DNA of 64,000 nucleotides from Octopus sinensis (lineage: Eukaryota). The translations under genes and the position numbers were made by a program. A model generated the notes under the pieces. It had not been told where the DNA came from, made no database searches, and saw only the letters and a program-made list of their open reading frames with translations. Shown here one piece after another: positions 912 to 49,905 of the stretch. The stretch is from assembly GCF_006345805.1 (NCBI RefSeq), contig NC_042998.1, positions 95,852,001 to 95,916,000 of the forward strand, written 5' to 3'. How positions within the stretch are numbered: the stretch's first letter is position 1; each line of letters opens with the position of its first letter.

Positions 912-1677
912 TTATATATAATTAGGGCTTAGTAAAATAAATTACTTTGCCACATACTGAATTTGCTAGAAATAGCAGCCAAAAAAGTTTTTTTGCCATT
1001 TCCACTACTTAAAGAAAATTTCTCTCAGATAATGTTTACTCAAAATAACTCACGAAGGTATGGAGGTAAAAACAGAAAAATATCACAAGTACAAAGATTA
1101 TTTGAGAACGTTAACGTTTCTAGATTAGCCAAATAAACTCAGCATTTCTTTCGTCAGCTCAACATTTCTTATTTTGGATTTGGAAGCACTAAAAAGAAAG
1201 AACATACCCTTTGGCGACTTATCACCTCAGATGACCCGTTCAGACTGCCAGTACCAACAAATTCAAAATGTGCAAGCGAAGATTCCCTGCTCTCCCCTTC
1301 CACCCACGTGGGTTATCTAGCAAACATTATATTTTAACGGTGAGAACCGAGGCAATATGACAGAGAGAAATGAATTATAATATCAACAATTGAGGGTAAA
1401 ATTAATTAGTTATTAATCAATTTCACAAAGTATTCAGTATGTAAAAGGACCATTTAAGGCGAATTCAAAATATTACATTATATAATTAGGGCTTAGTAAA
1501 ATAAATTACTTTGCCACATACTGAATTTGCTAGAAATAGCAGCCAAAAAAGTTTTTTTGCCATTTCCACTACTTAAAGAAAATTTCTCTCAGATAATGTT
1601 TACTCAAAATAACTCACGAAGGTATGGAGGTAAAAACAGAAAAATATCACAAGTACAAAGATTATTTGAGAACGTTA

Positions 1678-1679
<2 letters not shown>
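912..1679 (-). mobile_element. Non-autonomous hammerhead-bearing element, about 1.35 tandem units of 564 bp (retrozyme/Penelope pLTR-like)
   Basis: About 915-1115 is repeated at about 1478-1679 (position 1106 matches 1670). It starts in (TA)n, contains the hammerhead at 1102-1162, and is homologous to 49302-49905. Confidence 0.7.
1102..1162 (-). ncRNA. Minimal type-I hammerhead ribozyme
   Basis: Minus strand reads ttgag CTGACGA aagaaatgctgagtttatttggctaatcta GAA acgttaacgt T ctcaa. This gives a 5-bp stem I, full core, palindromic stem III and a GUU cleavage triplet. The first stem II pair is an A-A mismatch. Confidence 0.75.
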
Positions 1680-3125: not shown

Positions 3126-3781
3126 CTAGCAGCTAAGCCCGGTTTCACCCGGTCTGTTTGGATGATGTGGCTGTGATCGTTTTCGATTAGGCATAATCTA
3201 TAACAGAGTTTCTCAACCTTATCATTTCGTTATTCGTATAAAATTTTTACAATTGTTGATTTATGGAAAAAATTTTGTTAAATTTTTGAAATGCAAATAT
3301 GTGAATGAAAATTAAGTTCAGACCTCTACATGGCAGCTAGGCCTGGAAGAAATAGCAGCCAAATCTCCCTCAAAACACCCTGTCTTAATCCGACAATTCT
3401 GCCTGTTATGTAGTTTGAATGAGAAACTGTATCTAAAGATGAAGATTATTAACCCCAGAAAGAGGTGAAAGAAGAGAGACAGCATAGCGAAAGTTTTGGC
3501 TGACTGTCATCCTGTACTCCCCTTGTTGCTAGCGAAATGGTATATACCGGCTGTGTGAGCAACTGGTTGTTTTAATGGCAGAACAAACAGGGGAATTCCA
3601 TTAGAAAAGTCTTAATCGATTTTCTCGGTAACTATGGGGATTAGGAAATAAATACAAACTGCATTTCAATCTATGCACCCGTCTCCACATGTGTGCCATT
3701 TTTCATAGGAATCCACCCAGCCGTTTGGCTGTGAACCTCAAGACAATAAAGAATACAACGATCGCCCATGTCCAATTTATG

Positions 3782-3790
<9 letters not shown>
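3126..3790 (-). mobile_element. Non-autonomous Helitron
   Basis: The minus-strand 3' end has a ccgg-gtgaaa-ccgg hairpin about 9 nt before CTAG, followed by T. Both ends lie in (TA)n. Confidence 0.65.
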
Positions 3791-13653: not shown

Positions 13654-13760
13654 GTATTCGCTACGGCAGTACATATTCTAAAATTGGAACGATACAGAGA
13701 AGATTGGCATGGCTCCTGCGCAAGGATGACACGCAAATTCGTGAAGCGTTCCATATTTTT
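13654..13760 (+). pseudogene. RNU6: U6 snRNA full-length copy, probably a retropseudogene
   Basis: 107 nt, GTATTCGCTACGGCAGTAC...ACAGAGAAGATTGGCATGGCTCCTGCGCAAGGATGACACGCAAATTCGTGAAGCGTTCCATATTTTT. The AGC triad reads GGC (13706), an ISL C is T (13714), and no TATA box is present near -30. Confidence 0.92.
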
Positions 13761-14505: not shown

Positions 14506-15029
14506 GTCGATTACATCGATCCTTGTACTTGACTAGTACTCCATTTTATCGATCTCAAAGGGACGAAGGGCAAAGGTGACCTTGATGAAATTTGAACTCA
14601 GAAAGTAAAGTGTCGGAAGAAATTCCGCACAGCATTTTGTCCGAAGTGCTAATAATTCTGTCAACTCATAGTCTTAAAATCCCACACTGTCGTCTTGAAA
14701 ACGGAAGGACATATTGAAAGAAAGTCATAGTAAAACGATTTTGATCGTAAGTCTGGTTGATCAGGAAACTAAGCAATAACAACTCTTCGAAGACGATAAC
14801 CAAGAATGTAAAGGATAATCTCATGCATCGCACACTTGATATGTTTCCTCGTTCCCAAGTGCAGTCTGATTGTCTGCTGCTTTTAATTAATCGTAGATTT
14901 CCTCATTTATCAGAACATAAATGTCTCTGTCAGCAATTATTTTTCTTTCGTCATATAATATAGCCCCTATCCTAGTTTCATTTTCTCAAACATATTTGTC
15001 TCGTTACTACATAACACAGCTGTCAAGTA

Positions 15030-16860
15030 CAAAATTTTTTCAAGTTTTTAGGCTTTCTTTCACTAAGAACCATAGCTCGATCTGTGATTATATCTTTTAA
15101 TTCATTACTTTGAGCAATGGTTGGTAGATTTGCTTTGGCAATGTTGAAGATATTCTGGTGACATGGGCTGTATGTCACTAATAGGTATGACTTGTTCCTC
15201 TTCTCCTTTTCTTTGGGTTGTTCTCAGTTGTTGTATGGGTATTTTAAAGCCCGCTGTATGCCATTTTCTACAAGTAGAGACGAGTATTTTTGTTTGAGCA
15301 AAAATTCTTTTAGTTCTGTTAGGCGTTTTTTCCTGATATTTGCATTTTCTACAATGGTACAAATTCTTCTGACTAGGCAGTATGTGATGTTGAGTTTTGT
15401 ATATGGTGGGTGGCACGACTTAAAATTCAGGTTTTGATGTGTGTCCGTATGTTTGTAGTATATATCTGTGATAATGGTGGTGTCCTTTTTAATTACCATT
15501 ATATAAATTGGAGAGATGGGTGTAGGTTGTTCAGGAGGATTTTGAACTCTTTCAGAGTATTTAGAGATTCTGTCCAGATTATGAAACAATCGTCAAGGCA
15601 TCTCTTCCATGCCTTTTCGATATAATTTCTAAATCCAGTGCTATAGTTTTCCTCTACTTCTTGGTAGAGTTGTTGTTTTAGATATCCCATTACAGAGTTC
15701 GCGTAAACGGGAGCAAACCTCGTTCCCATCGCCATGTCTTTACCTTGGATGTAATTATTTCCATTGAAGAAGATTGTGTAGTTTTCCAGAATAAGTCTGA
15801 CTGTGTCTAATATAAATAGCACTGTGAATCTGTTGGGGATCACTTCTCTGTGTTTTTCTACCTAGTATCTAATCGCCTTTATTCCTAAAGCATGTGGAAT
15901 ATTGGTGTTGAGGCTTACCACATCAAAACTAAGTAGAAGTGAATTTGTTTCAGTTGTTTTGGGAAGATGGGATTGGAAGTCGATGTCATCCCGGATGAAA
16001 CTGGGTATGTAGGTACATAGTGGTTTCATAACAATGTTAATAAAATTGCTTAGACGGTGGATAGGGCATGCTGGAGCAACTATAATAGGACCTAAGTTTT
16101 AAGTCTTTTGGATGCAATAATTTTATGTACTCACTTTTTTGTTTTTAATGCATGCCGAATATCTTTTTATTTATGTATTTTCGCTAAGCTGTAGAAGTTG
16201 CTGGGTTTTGGTTCGAAATCAGTGATGTAGTCTCTTTCATTATCGGTGAGTTGTGGTGTTTTGAAACAAGGTTTTTGATCTTCTTCATGGTGTGGTGGTC
16301 TATATTTGTAGGAATTTCACAATAGAAGGTTGTGTCCTTTAGTTCGTCCTCAACCAAATCCTTATAGCATTCTGCATCCAGAATAACAATTGCACCCCCT
16401 TTATAGCTTGTTTAATTATTATTGTTTGATCGTTTTGTATACGTTTAAATACAGACATTTCAGATTTGTTGAGGTTTGGCCTAATATTAGTATTGCGTTT
16501 AAGGGAAAATTTTAACAGGGTATCAATGTATTGCTCAAGATAGTGATTTCTTCCTTTTGGTGGGGTGAAGTTTGATTTATTCTTTACTAGGGATTCATCA
16601 ATCTCATTACTATTATTAGTGAAGAATTCTACAATTCGTAACTTACGACAGAATTTTTGGATATCTTCTTTTAGTTCATGGTGGTTGACAGTTGGTGTAA
16701 GTGTAAGTTTCAGTCCTTTTGAAAGAAGTTGGATTTCATCATTGTCAAGATCCCTTTTGGATAAGTTAATTATTTTAGGATTTATATGTTCAGTTGTTTT
16801 GGGTATGTTTCCTCTTGGATTTATTTTTATTTCTCCGGTGTTTGTTGTCCAATCATACAC
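15030..16860 (-). pseudogene. Penelope-like element reverse transcriptase pseudogene (GIY-YIG domain not seen)
   Basis: IINLSKRDL..LLSKGLK, NLNKSE...IIIKQA (DKG-motif region), FDVVSLNTNIP, MAMGTRFAPVYAN, WKRCLDDCFIIW and YYKHTDTHQNLNFKSCHP, with many frameshifts. The 5' end abuts a (TA)/(TG) microsatellite. Confidence 0.85.
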
Positions 16861-34989: not shown

Positions 34990-35527
34990 GTCATGGTGAT
35001 GGTTTGATGGTGTACTGCTAGCCTCATCTACTATAGCTTCTTAAACCTGGAAAAACCATTACTGCACAAACATATTGCTATGAAATTGTCAAAATGAACG
35101 AAAAACTACCAATCCTCCGCCCCAGACTGGCCAACAGAAGAGGACCAATCATTCTTCATGACAATGCTCGCCTACACGTTTCACTAATGACACTCCAACA
35201 GTTGAGGGAACTTGGCTACGAAGTTCTTCCCCACCCAGCGTATCGCCCAAACGTTTCTCCTACCGACTACCACTTTTTCAAGCACCTTGATGGTTTCCTA
35301 CGAGAGGAGTTCAAAAATCAAACCGATGCTGAAAATGCGTTCAAAGAGTTCATTTACTCCAGAACGCCAGATTTTTATGTTACCGGAATAAATAGACTTG
35401 TAACTAGTTGGCAAAAATGTGTTGATTGTAATGGTACTTACTTTGATGAACAAAATTTTCGCATTGTTGAAATATATTGTGAAGAATTTCATGTTTCAAA
35501 ACGTTGCTTACCTTTTTAACTCAGCCT

Positions 35528-35640: not shown

Positions 35641-36917
35641 CAGACATGCAGGAAGTAAATAGACACCAATAATTTTCAAAATCTTTTATTTAATTCGCAA
35701 AGTGAACAATTGAAATGTAATCGATAGGTAGGACTATTTACTTTAGTGTTTAGTTGACATTACCTTTGCAGTTTTTAATTCAGAAACTCTTTTTGGCATT
35801 GAACTGATGAACTTCGTGGTTGTCTCTTGTGGAATTTCTACCCGCTCTTCACGCAACAATCGAAACAATTCATCTTTAGATTTAGGTTTCTGTCGAGTTT
35901 TTCGTATGACTCTATCTAGTATGCTCCAAAGATTTTCAGTTGGGTTCATGTCAGGAGATTGACTCTGACAAGGAAGCTTTTTGATCCCATTTTCAGTCAA
36001 CCATTGTTGATTCCTTTTCGCTGTGCGGCATGGAGCCCCACCTTCCATGAATAAAAACTCATTTTTTTGTTATGTTATCATGTGAATACATCGGAAGTAG
36101 TCCTTGCTTAAGAATTTCGATGTATTTTTCAGAGTTTATGGTTCCAACACATACATTCGATCAGCTCAGAACGACCACTGATGGTGACAGCTCCTCATAG
36201 CATTACAGAGATACCGCCATGTATTCACAGTTGGTTGGAGTTGTTTCAAATCAAATTCTTGATTGGGAAGCCTCCAAATCCAAACATGTCCACTGTCTGA
36301 AAATAATGCAAATCTGGATTTATCTGAGAAAATCATTCAATACCAAAATGAACTGGATTTTTCTGACATCTCCTTAGCCCATATCTTTGTTTTCATGATA
36401 TTAATTGGTTGAAGGAGAGGTTTTCTTCTAGCTGCTCGTTCATAATACCCAAGCTTATGCAGATATGTAACACATGTTCTTGGACTGACTTCTAGCTGTT
36501 TTGCAATGTCAGAAGCCTTCGAACAGGGTTCGTTTTCCACAATTCTCATCAAACAGCGAAGCTTCCTTTCCGAGGGTCCAGGTCGGCAGGGGCGAGAATC
36601 TGTTGATTCTTTTCCTTGACTTTTGAATTGCACTATAATTCTATTAACAGCAACAAGAGGAATTTGAAGATTTTCGGCAATTTTTCGCTGGCTAAAACCA
36701 GCCTCAGATTGCCCAACAATACGACCTCTTTGAAAATCTGACAGTTCTGTTGAAATTTTTGTGCGTGGCATGGTTACTCTTCGCAAATGTTTAATATAAT
36801 GGCACCTGGAATGAAAAAGTATAATTACATTGTAAATTCTACACCGCTGAAAACATTAAGACACTTAAATCAGAAATTTTGAAAATTAAAGATGTCTATT
36901 TACTTCCTGCATGTCTG
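35641..36917 (-). mobile_element. Tc1-like transposon, full length, transposase (about 36771-35743) disrupted
   Basis: TIRs cagacatgcaggaagtaaatagaca at both ends. [26 protein letters not shown] and QSPDMNPTENLW motifs, with a stop and frameshifts. Confidence 0.92.
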
Positions 36918-41580: not shown

Positions 41581-44500
41581 ATGTCTTACGAAACAAAAAG
41601 GAAAACTACAACAGTACACCAAATCGCTTGTCCTATGGTTAATCTGGAAGCGTGTCCTCCAGGAGAGAGCCAGCCTGGGGTCGAAAGGTCATCCACTGGC
41701 ACAAACTTTTCCCTGGATACGAATCTAGATGGTCACTTGAACGGGAAATACCCCAACTCAAGCCCCCAAGTCCACCACCACACCCATCACAGAAAGAAAA
41801 ATGTAAGAGGATCAAATGGGCCTGAGAAGAGTATACAGAAGTAACATACGCCTATTACTATGCATTAGGTAGGCCATCTGAAGAGAAACACACTGCACAC
41901 TCTTATCAAATATAGAGAAAACAAAATTACGACAGCAGACTATATTTGGACGAAAACAAGTGAGCAAATATTAGGAGAGATATCCTCAAAAATAAAAGAC
42001 TCATAGATAGTGAAATAACCATGATCAAGCACGTAGCGGAAAATGATCTGAATATAAGACAGAAAGGAAATGAAGAACCTGACGAAGAGAGCAACTCTCC
42101 ACGAGTCTCAACTGAAAGACTGTCAACTGACCCGAACACGGAAATGTCTGAAGAAATAAATTGTAATGGACCTGATAAAGATAGCGAGAAAAAGTAGTAA
42201 AGAAACAATATTTGAAGACTACACATTTACTGAAGAACATTGAGAGTAAATGATAGAAATGAAGCAGAAAATCCTGAATATGCTTGCAGTTGTAAGGCAC
42301 GCCCATATGCATGATAGGGAAACACTTCATAAATTCTCAAATATAATCCAAAATAGAAAACAAATTAAATTTGGAAACTATGTAACAAAAGAAATTATAC
42401 AAGAACTAAAACCAGTTCTCATTGAACGAAACAAAATTATTTACACAACTACTAAGACAACTGAAAACAAAAAAATGCAAACCCGAGAAGAAATCCAAAC
42501 TAGAAAAGTAAATTGAAAAAGAGATTCAAATAATGAGAGGTGAAATATCAATATTGAATGAACTAATCTGTGGAAACGAAATAAAATCCAGAAAAGGAAG
42601 AAAGATGAAGAGAAAACAGAGATTCTCACCGAGAGAAGAACTACTTTCAGCAAAAGAAACACTGCAACAAAAGTGCAAGCAAAAGCTCAAGGAACACGAA
42701 TATTTGAGAAGAGAAACAGGTTTTACAATCAAAATAATCTGTTCACATCCAATGCGAAAACATTCTACAGAGAAATAGGGAAGGAGAAGATAACCGTTGA
42801 AGACACCCCCTCCTCCCATGGAAGAAGTTGAAAATTTTTGGAAAAATATCTGGAGTGATGAAAAGGCATACAATGAAAATGCAGATTGGATTAGATGCAC
42901 TGAAGAACCCTACCAAACCTTACAAATATGGGAAGACATCACAATAACAGACCTAAGGTTGGCACACACGAAAGCTCATAAGTGAAAACCCCTTGGTAAT
43001 GATAGGGTGCCAAGCTTCTGGCTCGCATCGGTTCTGTGCGTACGTGATAAGTTAGTCCAGTTATTCAATGAAATTATAAGAGATCCTACGAAAACACCTG
43101 ATTGGTTAACCAGAAGAATATTCCCGAAGAATAATGAAACCAAATTTCCTCAAAACTATCGGCCCATAAACATGTCTACCTATCACGTATGAAATTTTAA
43201 CATCCATCCTCGTGGAGAAAGCATACAAATTTATGGAACAGAACGATATTTTTCTTACTGCACAAAAAGGGTGCCAACGAGGCTCATATCGATGCAAAGA
43301 CCAACTTTTAATCAATCGCATGATCCTCGAGAACTGTCATAACAAACGCAGAAATCTCAGCTCCGCATGGATTGATTATAAAAAGGCCTTTGACAAGCAT
43401 ATCGCATTCATGGATCTTGAAATCGCTGGATATCTTCCAAATCTCTCCTATAATTTCAAACTTCCTGGAGCACAACATGTCAGTATGGAATATGAATCTC
43501 CAATTATACCACCCTAATAGAGTACTGACCACAAAAAAATATTAACTACGGCATTTTCCAATGTGACTCACTTTCATTTTTAATTTATTGCATAGCCCTA
43601 ATACCCTTTACAAGTGAACTGAACAGAACAAGGTATGGATATAAAATTGGCGACAAAAAAATGTCATCTATTTTATATGGATGACTTAAAACTCAACGGC
43701 AAAGACGATATTGTGCTTGAAGGACTATTACGTACCGTGAAAGCATTTAGTGATGACATCGCGATAGAGTTTGGCCTTGATAAATGTGCCAAACTACTTT
43801 CCAGAAGAGGAAATTGAAACCCCACATTCAGTGAGGTTCGGTGTTGATATAGTGATAAAAGAACTCGAACAGAAACAAGCTTACAAATCCTTCGAAATAA
43901 ATGAGGGCTCTGGCATTCAGTATGCAAGCGTGAAAGAGAACATCAGGAAGGAATGTTACAGGAGAGTTCGAGCAGTCCTAAAATCCGAGTTAAATGTATG
44001 TAACAAGGTGTTAACTATAAATTCCTTAGCAGTTCTACTTGTTATTTACAGTTCCAATGTGTTGAACTGGAATATGAGCGAAATAAGGAAGATTGACAGG
44101 AAAATCCGTAAACTGCTGACTTGCAATAAGATGCACCACCCAAAAGCAGACGCAGATCGTCATTACCTACCCACAGCTCAAGGAGGTCGAGGCTTGATCC
44201 TATTTGAAATCCCTTACGAAACCACCACAACTGGACGGGCACAATATCTTGAAACATTTAACGTGTGGATGCTAAATTTCGTTGAAAACCACGAAGGCGG
44301 TAAGGAATTACATTCTGTTATGAAGGAGAGCAAAAAATTTTCAAGTGAGTTTATACATAATATCCAGGTTGAACAGCATGATGGAAATGCTCAGAAACTA
44401 TAAAAATTTGGTAATCGAGTTCGAGAAGATGTGGTATCTCAAGACGGTTACAATACCAGTGATTGTAGGAGTACTTATCATGATAAAAAAAAAAAAAGGA

Positions 44501-48372: not shown

Positions 48373-49301
48373 GACAGACGAAGTGTTTTGTAGTATTAGT
48401 TTCGACTCTTTGCTATCTCATTTCACGGATACCACGCTTAATTCATCGCCTGATTCAACACGGTCACATGGTCCTTGAGATTCTCAAGTGGAGCATACTA
48501 AATTATAAGACTTTGTGTCGGGTTTCCGGTTCCAAGATAACTGCCTTACTTCCTGTCATCAGATTTGGATGTGCGGAAATAATAAAACGTTACTAGCGCT
48601 CCCTTCTCTTCATTGACTAAGTAGATTACATGTATGTATGTATGTGTGTATGTATGTATGTATGTATGTATGTATGTATGTATGCATGTATGTATGTATG
48701 TGTGTATGTGTGTGTATGTATGTTGGTATGTATATATGTGTGTATGTATGTATGTATGTATGTATGTATGTATGTATGTATGTATGTGTGCATGTATGTA
48801 TGTTTGTATGCATGCATGTATGTGTGTATGTGTGTATATGTATGTTGGTATGTATATATGTGTGCATGTATGTATGTATGTATGTATGTGTATGTATGTT
48901 GGTATGTATATATGTGTGCATGTATGTATGTATGTGTATACATACACACATGTATATGTATATATAAATATTTGTTCGCGTACATGTGTGTGTGAGTATG
49001 TGTATGTGTGCGTGGGTGAGCGTGTGTGTGAATGTGGTCGGGGGTAAGTGTGTGTCTTCATCCGTGATTGTCCCCCACCAATCGGTGTTGGTGTGTTTAT
49101 GTACCCGTAACTCAGCGGTTCGGCAAAAAACACCGATAGAATAAATACTAGGCTTTACAAAATAAATAAAGACTGGGGTTGATTCATTCGACTAAAATTC
49201 TTCAAAGCGGTGCCCTAGCATGGGCACAATGTAAAGAATAATAATAGTAAACAAACAAAATAAACGTGTGTTTGTATGTATATATATATATATATATATA
49301 T

Positions 49302-49905
49302 ACTAAGCAATAAGGGTTTAGCAACGAGTTGCCTTACCACATACCGAATTTAGAAATAGCAGTCAAAGGGTTATAGCTATTTCTTCTACTAAAAAGGGAG
49401 ATCTCAGTAAAAACAGCATTTGGAAGGCAGACACAAACAGGTAAGAGAGAATGAATTAACTGCAATCTATCATACATTTTTTTAGTTATCCACGGACGTA
49501 CGTTTCGAAATCAAGTTTTAAGGAAAGCATAAGAATTAGATATTAAATATTAAATAATAAATATTCTATCTTACCGAAACTTCTTTTCTCTTCAGCGTAG
49601 AATACTAATATCATAAATGATTATATATTGAATTTTGAGATACCAGAAGGCACCAACTCCACTCAGTATCAGAGCGAGCTAGAATCCGCAACTGGTATCA
49701 CGAATTCAATTGTGAATGAAACGATTGTGTCAACAGCCCCTTCCCACCCGCGTGTAGCCAAAACAAGATGCTGTGGTCATCTACTGAGATAAAATATGGT
49801 TATCCGTAATTGAGGGTGAAATTAATAATTTGGAAAATAAATCAATTACACCAAGTAGTCTTCGGCATGTAAAAGCCTCATTCGAGGAAAATTTAAGTAA
49901 TACAT
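49302..49905 (-). mobile_element. Non-autonomous hammerhead-bearing element, monomer inserted in (TA)n
   Basis: Shares blocks with 912-1679 in the same order: ccacatac.gaattt..tagaaatagcag.caaa, hammerhead, ccaccc.cgtg, attgagggt.aaattaat, atgtaaaag. Confidence 0.7.
49490..49600 (-). ncRNA. Minimal type-I hammerhead ribozyme with extended stem II
   Basis: ctacg CTGAAGA gaaaagaagttt...aaacttgatttc GAA acgtacgt C cgtgg. Full core, G10.1-C11.1 pair and GUC triplet, with predicted cleavage at 49495/49494. Confidence 0.85.

Follow-up and report, generated by a model that had tools for sequence, protein, structure and literature searches.

Two sister elements in the 64-kb window, by which we mean the whole stretch of octopus DNA analyzed here, are probably non-coding repeats of the non-LTR retrozyme type that are likely mobilized by a Penelope-like reverse transcriptase (RT), with a predicted RNA fold across the junction of their two ends likely setting the point at which copying starts. 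The feature is real and probably represents a new family within a kind of element that is already known; its function is what we infer. The original prediction described two units of common architecture with a covarying stem around a TA junction and proposed that the stem serves as an RT recognition or priming signal. The observation is confirmed, and the interpretation is partly supported. The window is microsatellite-rich, animal-type DNA that carries a U6 snRNA gene and broken transposon genes.

Two sister elements and their hammerheads

Unit 2 (positions 49303 to 49904, minus strand) is a complete non-coding monomer of 602 nt with 35% GC that has TA tracts on both sides, one of them at 49279 to 49302. 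Unit 1 (915 to 1478, minus strand) is a sister element of 564 nt and is followed head-to-tail by a second, 5'-truncated copy of 201 identical nucleotides (1479 to 1679, minus strand), so that the unit 1 array comprises 1.36 copies compared with the single monomer of unit 2. A natural TA junction is visible where the truncated copy joins the full unit 1. Unit 1 had been predicted to span 912 to 1478; its end at 1478 stands, but the period of 564 nt puts its start at 915. The longest ATG-initiated open reading frames encode 47 amino acids in unit 2 and 34 in unit 1, and GC content is 33 to 35% across both. As in non-LTR retrozymes, both units are non-coding, have less than 50% GC, and lack an LTR structure; terminal direct repeats were found in neither. 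Nor are the first and last 20 nt complementary in either unit, which sets them apart from TA-inserting Tc1/mariner miniature elements with terminal inverted repeats at their very ends.

BLAST comparison of the two units detected similarity at the two ends only, at 71 to 73% identity (E values of 5e-6 and 9e-9). In the full alignment, the end blocks have identities of 0.77 and 0.73, versus 0.43 to 0.56 for the four middle blocks. The claim that the units share a start and end register held up: the right ends align, with arm-to-end distances of 36 and 34 nt, and the left ends coincide within 1 to 7 nt (37 versus 36 nt), an offset that hinges on whether the TATATA of unit 1 is counted as part of the element. 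This comparison covers two insertions and one tandem junction. The hammerhead motifs described below lie on the minus strand, so the RNA sense is minus and the 3' end of each element is its left one on the genome. By this orientation, (TA)n adjoins the 3' ends of both units as well as the 5' end of unit 2; the 5' terminus starts with TG, and the units differ at the 3' terminus (TTAG in unit 2, TATA in unit 1). The otherwise diverged middles retain a G-rich block that has a CACGYG core (49738 to 49757 on the minus strand in unit 2; 1294 to 1312 in unit 1) and is a possible promoter or protein site. Neither a third copy (by nhmmer) nor an autonomous element with a sequence link to either unit was detected within the 64-kb window, including the broken RT locus at 14990 to 16860.

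A type I hammerhead was recognized on the minus strand of unit 2 (49489 to 49601) by our own pattern search and predicted fold. Helix I pairs 49596-49601 with 49489-49494, the core CUGAAGA lies at 49595-49589, and GAAA is at 49506-49503. The helix II arm is about 82 nt long, helix III has 2 bp with a palindromic GUAC loop, and cleavage is predicted after GUC, between 49495 and 49494. The minus-strand core of unit 1 lies at 1157-1151, with cleavage predicted between 1107 and 1106; its helix II is without the usual G10.1-C11.1 pair. In both units the predicted cut is 192 nt upstream of the 3' end or junction, and the truncated copy at 1479 to 1679 stops 9 nt past the predicted cut site. As originally described, the hammerhead stems differ in sequence between the units, while the cores are intact in both. 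Motif and predicted fold thus place a type I hammerhead with the short palindromic helix III typical of non-LTR retrozymes in each unit; the two were among five matches to our pattern. Rfam models matched only U6 at gathering level in the window, and no hammerhead was present among 29 weak Rfam matches around unit 2. Copies of the family show three versions of the helix I pair 49599/49491 (U·G, U-A, and C-G), all of which retain pairing.

A predicted fold across the TA junction

The inverted pair near the ends, which we call P1, lies exactly where it had been placed. In unit 1 the arms 952-962 and 1432-1442 form a perfect 11-bp inverted pair. In unit 2 the minus-strand arms on the element's 3' side (49339 to 49348) and 5' side (49861 to 49870) form 10 bp, and the predicted pair swap is present at 49345/49864, which on the minus strand is A-U in unit 1 and a compensatory G-C in unit 2. 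The additional mismatch reported at 49343/49866 is instead a U·G wobble on the minus strand, and the stem of unit 2 is therefore 10 unbroken base pairs. When pairing of the first 70 nt of a unit with its last 70 nt was compared with 3000 dinucleotide shuffles, a perfect 11-bp pair as in unit 1 arose in 0.1%. For unit 2, the longest run of Watson-Crick pairs alone was 5, reached by 98% of shuffles, and the longest run with G·U allowed was 12, reached by 3.2%. The unit 2 pair on its own is modest evidence, and support for this stem accordingly comes from its conservation with unit 1.

Closure of the stem over the UA junction, as proposed, was recovered with pair probabilities of 0.82 to 1.0 in the natural tandem of unit 1 and 0.71 to 1.0 in a circular fold of unit 2. 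P1 forms equally well as a panhandle in the linear genomic unit 2, so the stem is no evidence for a circle.

P1 is one helix of a predicted fold of about 190 nt that spans the TA junction. The natural junction of unit 1 (1385 to 1575) folds at a z score of -4.17, and none of 200 shuffles folded as well. The predicted order of elements in unit 1 is a P0 hairpin; P1, enclosing P2, a UA-rich junction hairpin, and a small P3; and then a long P4. The two halves of this five-helix domain sit at opposite genomic ends, yet the domain is predicted to be whole whether the RNA is a monomer left by cleavage, a tandem transcript, or a circle. All of its unit 2 counterparts are on the minus strand. P2 (49315 to 49338), a hairpin with an AA/AA internal loop that abuts P1, keeps 8 of 8 pairs relative to unit 1, two of them compensatory and one wobble, with a probability of 0.44 to 0.75 in unit 2 alone. 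P0 (49352 to 49384) lies just upstream of P1, and a G·U of unit 1 is A-U there in unit 2. P3 (49876 to 49887) is a 4-bp hairpin inside the P1 junction whose homology is uncertain, the unit 1 hairpin being shifted. P4 (49815 to 49852), a long A-U-rich hairpin downstream of P1, keeps 10 of 13 unit 1 pairs.

Covariation was assessed with the 44 pairs predicted from unit 1 alone at a probability of at least 0.8, which were read in unit 2 through a structure-blind alignment. Of these, 39 were kept: 31 show no change, 4 a change on one side, and 4 a change on both. The other 5 were broken, mostly at helix ends. Three of the two-sided changes are clean, one in P1 and two in P2; the fourth is in the shifted P3. 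With the 17 substitutions placed at random, the joint probability was 0.0002 under the empirical substitution mix and 0.004 under 80% transitions, and the corresponding values for pair retention alone were 0.002 and 0.078. The shuffle built into the covariation tool reached the observed level in 27 of 500 trials. Slid controls paired at 34 to 44%, versus 94%. The reverse test, from unit 2 to unit 1, kept 28 of 31 pairs with one two-sided change; such changes are few in this direction because P2 falls below the 0.8 cutoff. Valid pairs were more numerous on the minus than on the plus strand, at 44 versus 40 and 39 versus 36. The stem covariation of the original prediction was thus recovered and extends to neighboring helices. 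From a comparison of two sequences, in a domain whose limits were picked after the fold was seen, this predicted covariation is suggestive.

Conservation of pairs peaks around the junction, at 39 of 44 and 28 of 31; outside the domain 48 of 78 and 40 of 69 ungapped pairs are kept, although these counts come from the poorly aligning middle. Unit 2 as a whole folds at a z score of -5.7 (20 shuffles), and P1, P2, and P4 also fold under DNA parameters.

Related copies and the surrounding window

Four of 24 listed sequencing runs were compared with unit 2. Matching contigs numbered 1778 in run X4, which is DNA by guess, and 4350 in run X2, whose kind is unknown. Most of them are 90 to 99% alike, and many are copies about 95% identical to unit 2. 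Contig counts do not give copy number, but such matches indicate a family with many near copies, in keeping with the multicopy nature of non-LTR retrozymes. No back-joint was listed in these contigs, in alignments that had both unit ends masked as repeats. The sole substitution listed across the 20 arm positions replaces an A-U pair of the minus strand with G·U. That the arms hardly vary from copy to copy carries no signal, since only about 4% of all positions vary. Seven DNA variants are listed inside the junction domain, none of which breaks a stem pair and two of which would restore P4 pairs. Of 10 DNA variants at paired positions elsewhere, 5 break a predicted pair; one of these, at 49644, is matched by a variant at the partner position.

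Run X17, which is RNA by guess and comes from a different individual, has 13 T>C changes among 32 (A>G on the minus strand), compared with 1 of 23 and 2 of 22 in the DNA comparison runs (Fisher P values of 0.004 and 0.014). T>C also accounts for 10 of the 13 changes seen in X17 only; these ten cluster from 49367 to 49567, none has G as its 5' neighbor, and nine have U or A. A-to-I editing follows a 5'-neighbor rule, and the T>C excess would fit editing of the minus-strand, hammerhead-bearing RNA. Of the 13 X17-only changes, four (one of them T>C) have the same depth and appear to represent a single diverged contig, and run X16, also guessed to be RNA, has no T>C among 4 contigs. One X17 contig of 645 nt (record 6) matches only the last 80 nt or so of the element's 3' end (49312 to 49390) and then runs into a TA tract; this contig may be a short copy that is truncated at the 5' end and shares the element's 3' end. 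Pattern scans for further family members returned none from metagenomes, viral sequences, or prokaryote genomes. A 19-nt motif was found at 86 metagenome loci, but alignments there never exceeded 42 nt and no hammerhead accompanied them, and we took these loci to be chance matches.

Elsewhere in the window, a broken RT gene on the minus strand (14990 to 16860), which we take to be of Penelope type from its motifs, is without an endonuclease part and has its 5' end beside a TA/CA tract. Pfam searches of four frames of this gene gave nothing significant. If the class suggested by these motifs is correct, the gene shows that Penelope-type enzymes once existed in this genome. Fragments at 35037 to 35519, 35743 to 36855, and 43170 to 44403 presumably derive from mariner and Tc1 transposases and an RTE-type RT, which their motifs resemble. 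A U6 snRNA gene or copy lies at 13654 to 13760 (106 bits). Right behind the truncated copy of unit 1 is an inverted duplicate (1678 to 2300 versus 2216 to 2815, 87% identical with microsatellites counted) whose turning point is a perfect (AT)n palindrome near 2257; this duplicate may be an insertion fold-back or an assembly artifact. A TA-flanked element of 660 nt (3126 to 3785, minus strand) ends in a GC hairpin followed by 12 nt with CTAG, which is Helitron-like, and starts with TT rather than TC. It was considered as a third sister and rejected: it has no hammerhead core, and its only match is a 16-mer of unit 1 P0. The TA tract to the left of unit 1 is interrupted by TT/AA breaks, which were likewise considered as traces of repeated junction copying; this reading was dismissed, since 17 of the 18 TA tracts have such breaks.

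Origin of the units and a candidate start signal

Transcripts of non-LTR retrozymes are cut by their hammerheads and circularized, and copying by Penelope-like RTs has been proposed (PMC7229834; bioRxiv 10.64898/2026.07.22.740005; PMC4209133), with the priming step left open in the accessible text of PMC7229834 and bioRxiv 10.64898/2026.07.22.740005. The octopus units resemble the animal non-LTR retrozymes of PMC7229834 and the bioRxiv preprint in being non-coding and low in GC, in their type I hammerhead with a short palindromic helix III, and in their strong self-pairing; head-to-tail and monomer copies may be a further likeness, the array of unit 1 being 1.36 copies long. At 564 to 602 nt they are longer than the 150 to 450 nt given for invertebrate retrozymes by Cervera and de la Pena in 2020 (PMC7229834) and fall within the range of 51 to 972 nt in the 2026 preprint of Li, Clavereau, and Pollet. 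Unlike the retrozymes described there, unit 2 has a helix II arm of about 82 nt and both insertions lie in (TA)n. Two whole hammerheads in a row, the mark of an active retrozyme in the 2026 preprint as far as its available text goes, occur at neither the unit 1 nor the unit 2 locus.

The units also resemble Penelope-like elements. A shared 3' end with a 5'-truncated tandem copy is the pattern of these elements (Craig et al. 2021, PMC8557442), and a fixed 3' end downstream of a hammerhead with a 5'-truncated partial tandem, as in Penelope-like elements and pLTRs such as Poseidon PAc, is what our two insertions display. Their AT-rich, microsatellite target is also that of Penelope-like elements (PMC11167929; PMC8557442; PMC4209133), again judged from two insertions, in neither of which the optional Penelope tail of 30 to 40 bp was seen. 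Purified PAc protein cuts AT-rich DNA and begins reverse transcription within its RNA (Frangieh et al. 2024, PMC11167929); the start is at a stem-loop about 85 to 92 nt past the hammerhead cut, and RNA flanking it on either side, from +20 to +172, is needed (PMC11167929). The conserved domain that straddles the 3' end of the octopus insertions is similar to this arrangement, the PAc stem-loop being compared from its description in the text. In contrast to PAc, the octopus units have no open reading frame, their start would be 192 nt rather than about 85 to 92 nt past the cut, and it is UA-rich and matches the target, whereas that of PAc is an AC-rich loop without target homology.

We therefore favor the following scheme of how a retrozyme of this kind would be copied. 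The minus strand would be transcribed, and paired hammerheads with palindromic helix III would cut the transcript into monomers, which a host ligase may close into circles. With the genomic ends continuous in a cut monomer, circle, or tandem, the P0-P1-P2-P3-P4 domain would fold, and a Penelope-type RT-endonuclease would bind it and nick a (TA)n tract. The nicked (TA)n end would pair with the UA-rich stretch inside the P1 junction, where cDNA synthesis would begin, and the RT would run on through the ribozyme site. One round would yield unit 2, its 5' end closed by TA microhomology, and 1.36 rounds would yield unit 1. The truncated end of unit 1, 9 nt past the cut site, would imply a template that was uncut or religated there. 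The permutation of the genomic copies would then be fixed by an internal RT start and not by the ribozyme cut. Rather more tentatively, and as one possibility within this scheme, the junction domain could be a module like the template of telomerase RNA, a multihelix RT-binding scaffold that frames a UA template for the nicked (TA)n. Such a module would be the missing priming or recognition signal of animal retrozyme circles, and it would be transplantable, turning any circular RNA into cargo for a Penelope-type RT.

Other accounts of the same data are less probable. One of them, which is unlikely, keeps the retrozyme but assigns the junction fold to RNA stability, circle packing, transcription, or ligation, with the register arising from UA:TA microhomology alone. 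The z score of the whole of unit 2, the presence of P1 in the linear unit, and the TA-rich junction itself would agree with this, as would the heavy self-pairing of described retrozyme circles throughout their length (PMC7229834); against it, conservation of both sequence and pairs is concentrated around the junction, and other UA-rich stretches of the RNA never serve as ends in these copies. Another possibility is that the same signal is used by a LINE RT. LINE RTs usually begin at the RNA 3' end, and one LINE, Dong, targets microsatellites. A LINE such as a microsatellite-targeting Dong/R4 element seems a very improbable partner, even though Cervera and de la Pena leave LINEs open in this role and Dong-R4 figures among the recently active elements listed for an octopus genome (PMC13282606): the usual start at the RNA 3' end does not suit an internal start, which together with type I hammerheads and partial tandems is a Penelope trait in the published descriptions.

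The main competing account, also rather unlikely and not raised in the original prediction, dispenses with retrotransposition altogether and makes the units non-autonomous rolling-circle DNA elements (HLE2/Helentron-like), with the arms as subterminal inverted repeats, P2 as the 3' stem-loop, tandems as read-through, and the hammerhead as cargo. Short inverted repeats near the ends, a stem-loop behind the 3' repeat, and a non-coding sequence are indeed shared with HINE, DINE-1, and HLE2 elements (PMC4067079; PMC11417382). In the HINE/HLE2 pattern as described, the stem-loop behind the 3' repeat is 38 to 60 bp from the end; here the 3' arm is 36 to 47 nt from the end and P2 abuts it, the arms being borderline in length (10 to 11 nt, compared with 11 to 18 nt for HLE2/HINE repeats). 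The folding of P1, P2, and P4 as DNA also suits this account, and unit 2 ends in a hairpin plus 12 nt plus TAG|T, much as the Helitron-like element at 3126 to 3785 does. Yet the 5' arm is 34 to 36 nt inside the element, far from the expected 2 to 4 nt from the 5' end, and the flanks are (TA)n in place of a T|T insertion site. Helitrons proper (HLE1) fit no better, as there is no 5' TC and no 3' hairpin with CTRR at the aligned end. A DNA element, moreover, has no clear reason to retain a conserved hammerhead core at a fixed distance despite the turnover of its stems, and the excess of A>G changes points to hammerhead-strand RNA. A ribozyme goes unmentioned in the main text of HELIANO (Li et al. 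2024, PMC11417382) as available, and our literature search found no paper joining Helentron, subterminal inverted repeats, and hammerhead. A hybrid element with a live hammerhead and Helentron-type ends is quite improbable.

Our literature search also found no relevant published report of a hammerhead retrozyme in octopus, and no hammerhead-bearing non-autonomous retrotransposon in cephalopods. The word "ribozyme" is absent from the accessible text and supplement of the octopus repeat paper (PMC13282606), whose repeat library may hold the family unclassified. Animal retrozymes as such are already known, with RNA recognition and priming described as open in the available text of the cited literature, and the retrozyme papers (PMC7229834; bioRxiv 10.64898/2026.07.22.740005) name, to the extent of that text, no priming site or RT-recognition structure. 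What is new here, relative to the literature searched, is a defined, covarying candidate for an RT start signal. A break-and-rescue test would be direct, because the candidate is about 190 nt long, its pairs are named, and compensatory changes occur in it naturally; an assay for Penelope RT activity in vitro is already available (PMC11167929). If the proposed role of the junction fold is true, it would explain why the ends of genomic copies lie 192 nt from the ribozyme cut instead of at the cut. The family appears to be abundant and may be a sizeable substrate for A-to-I editing in its host.
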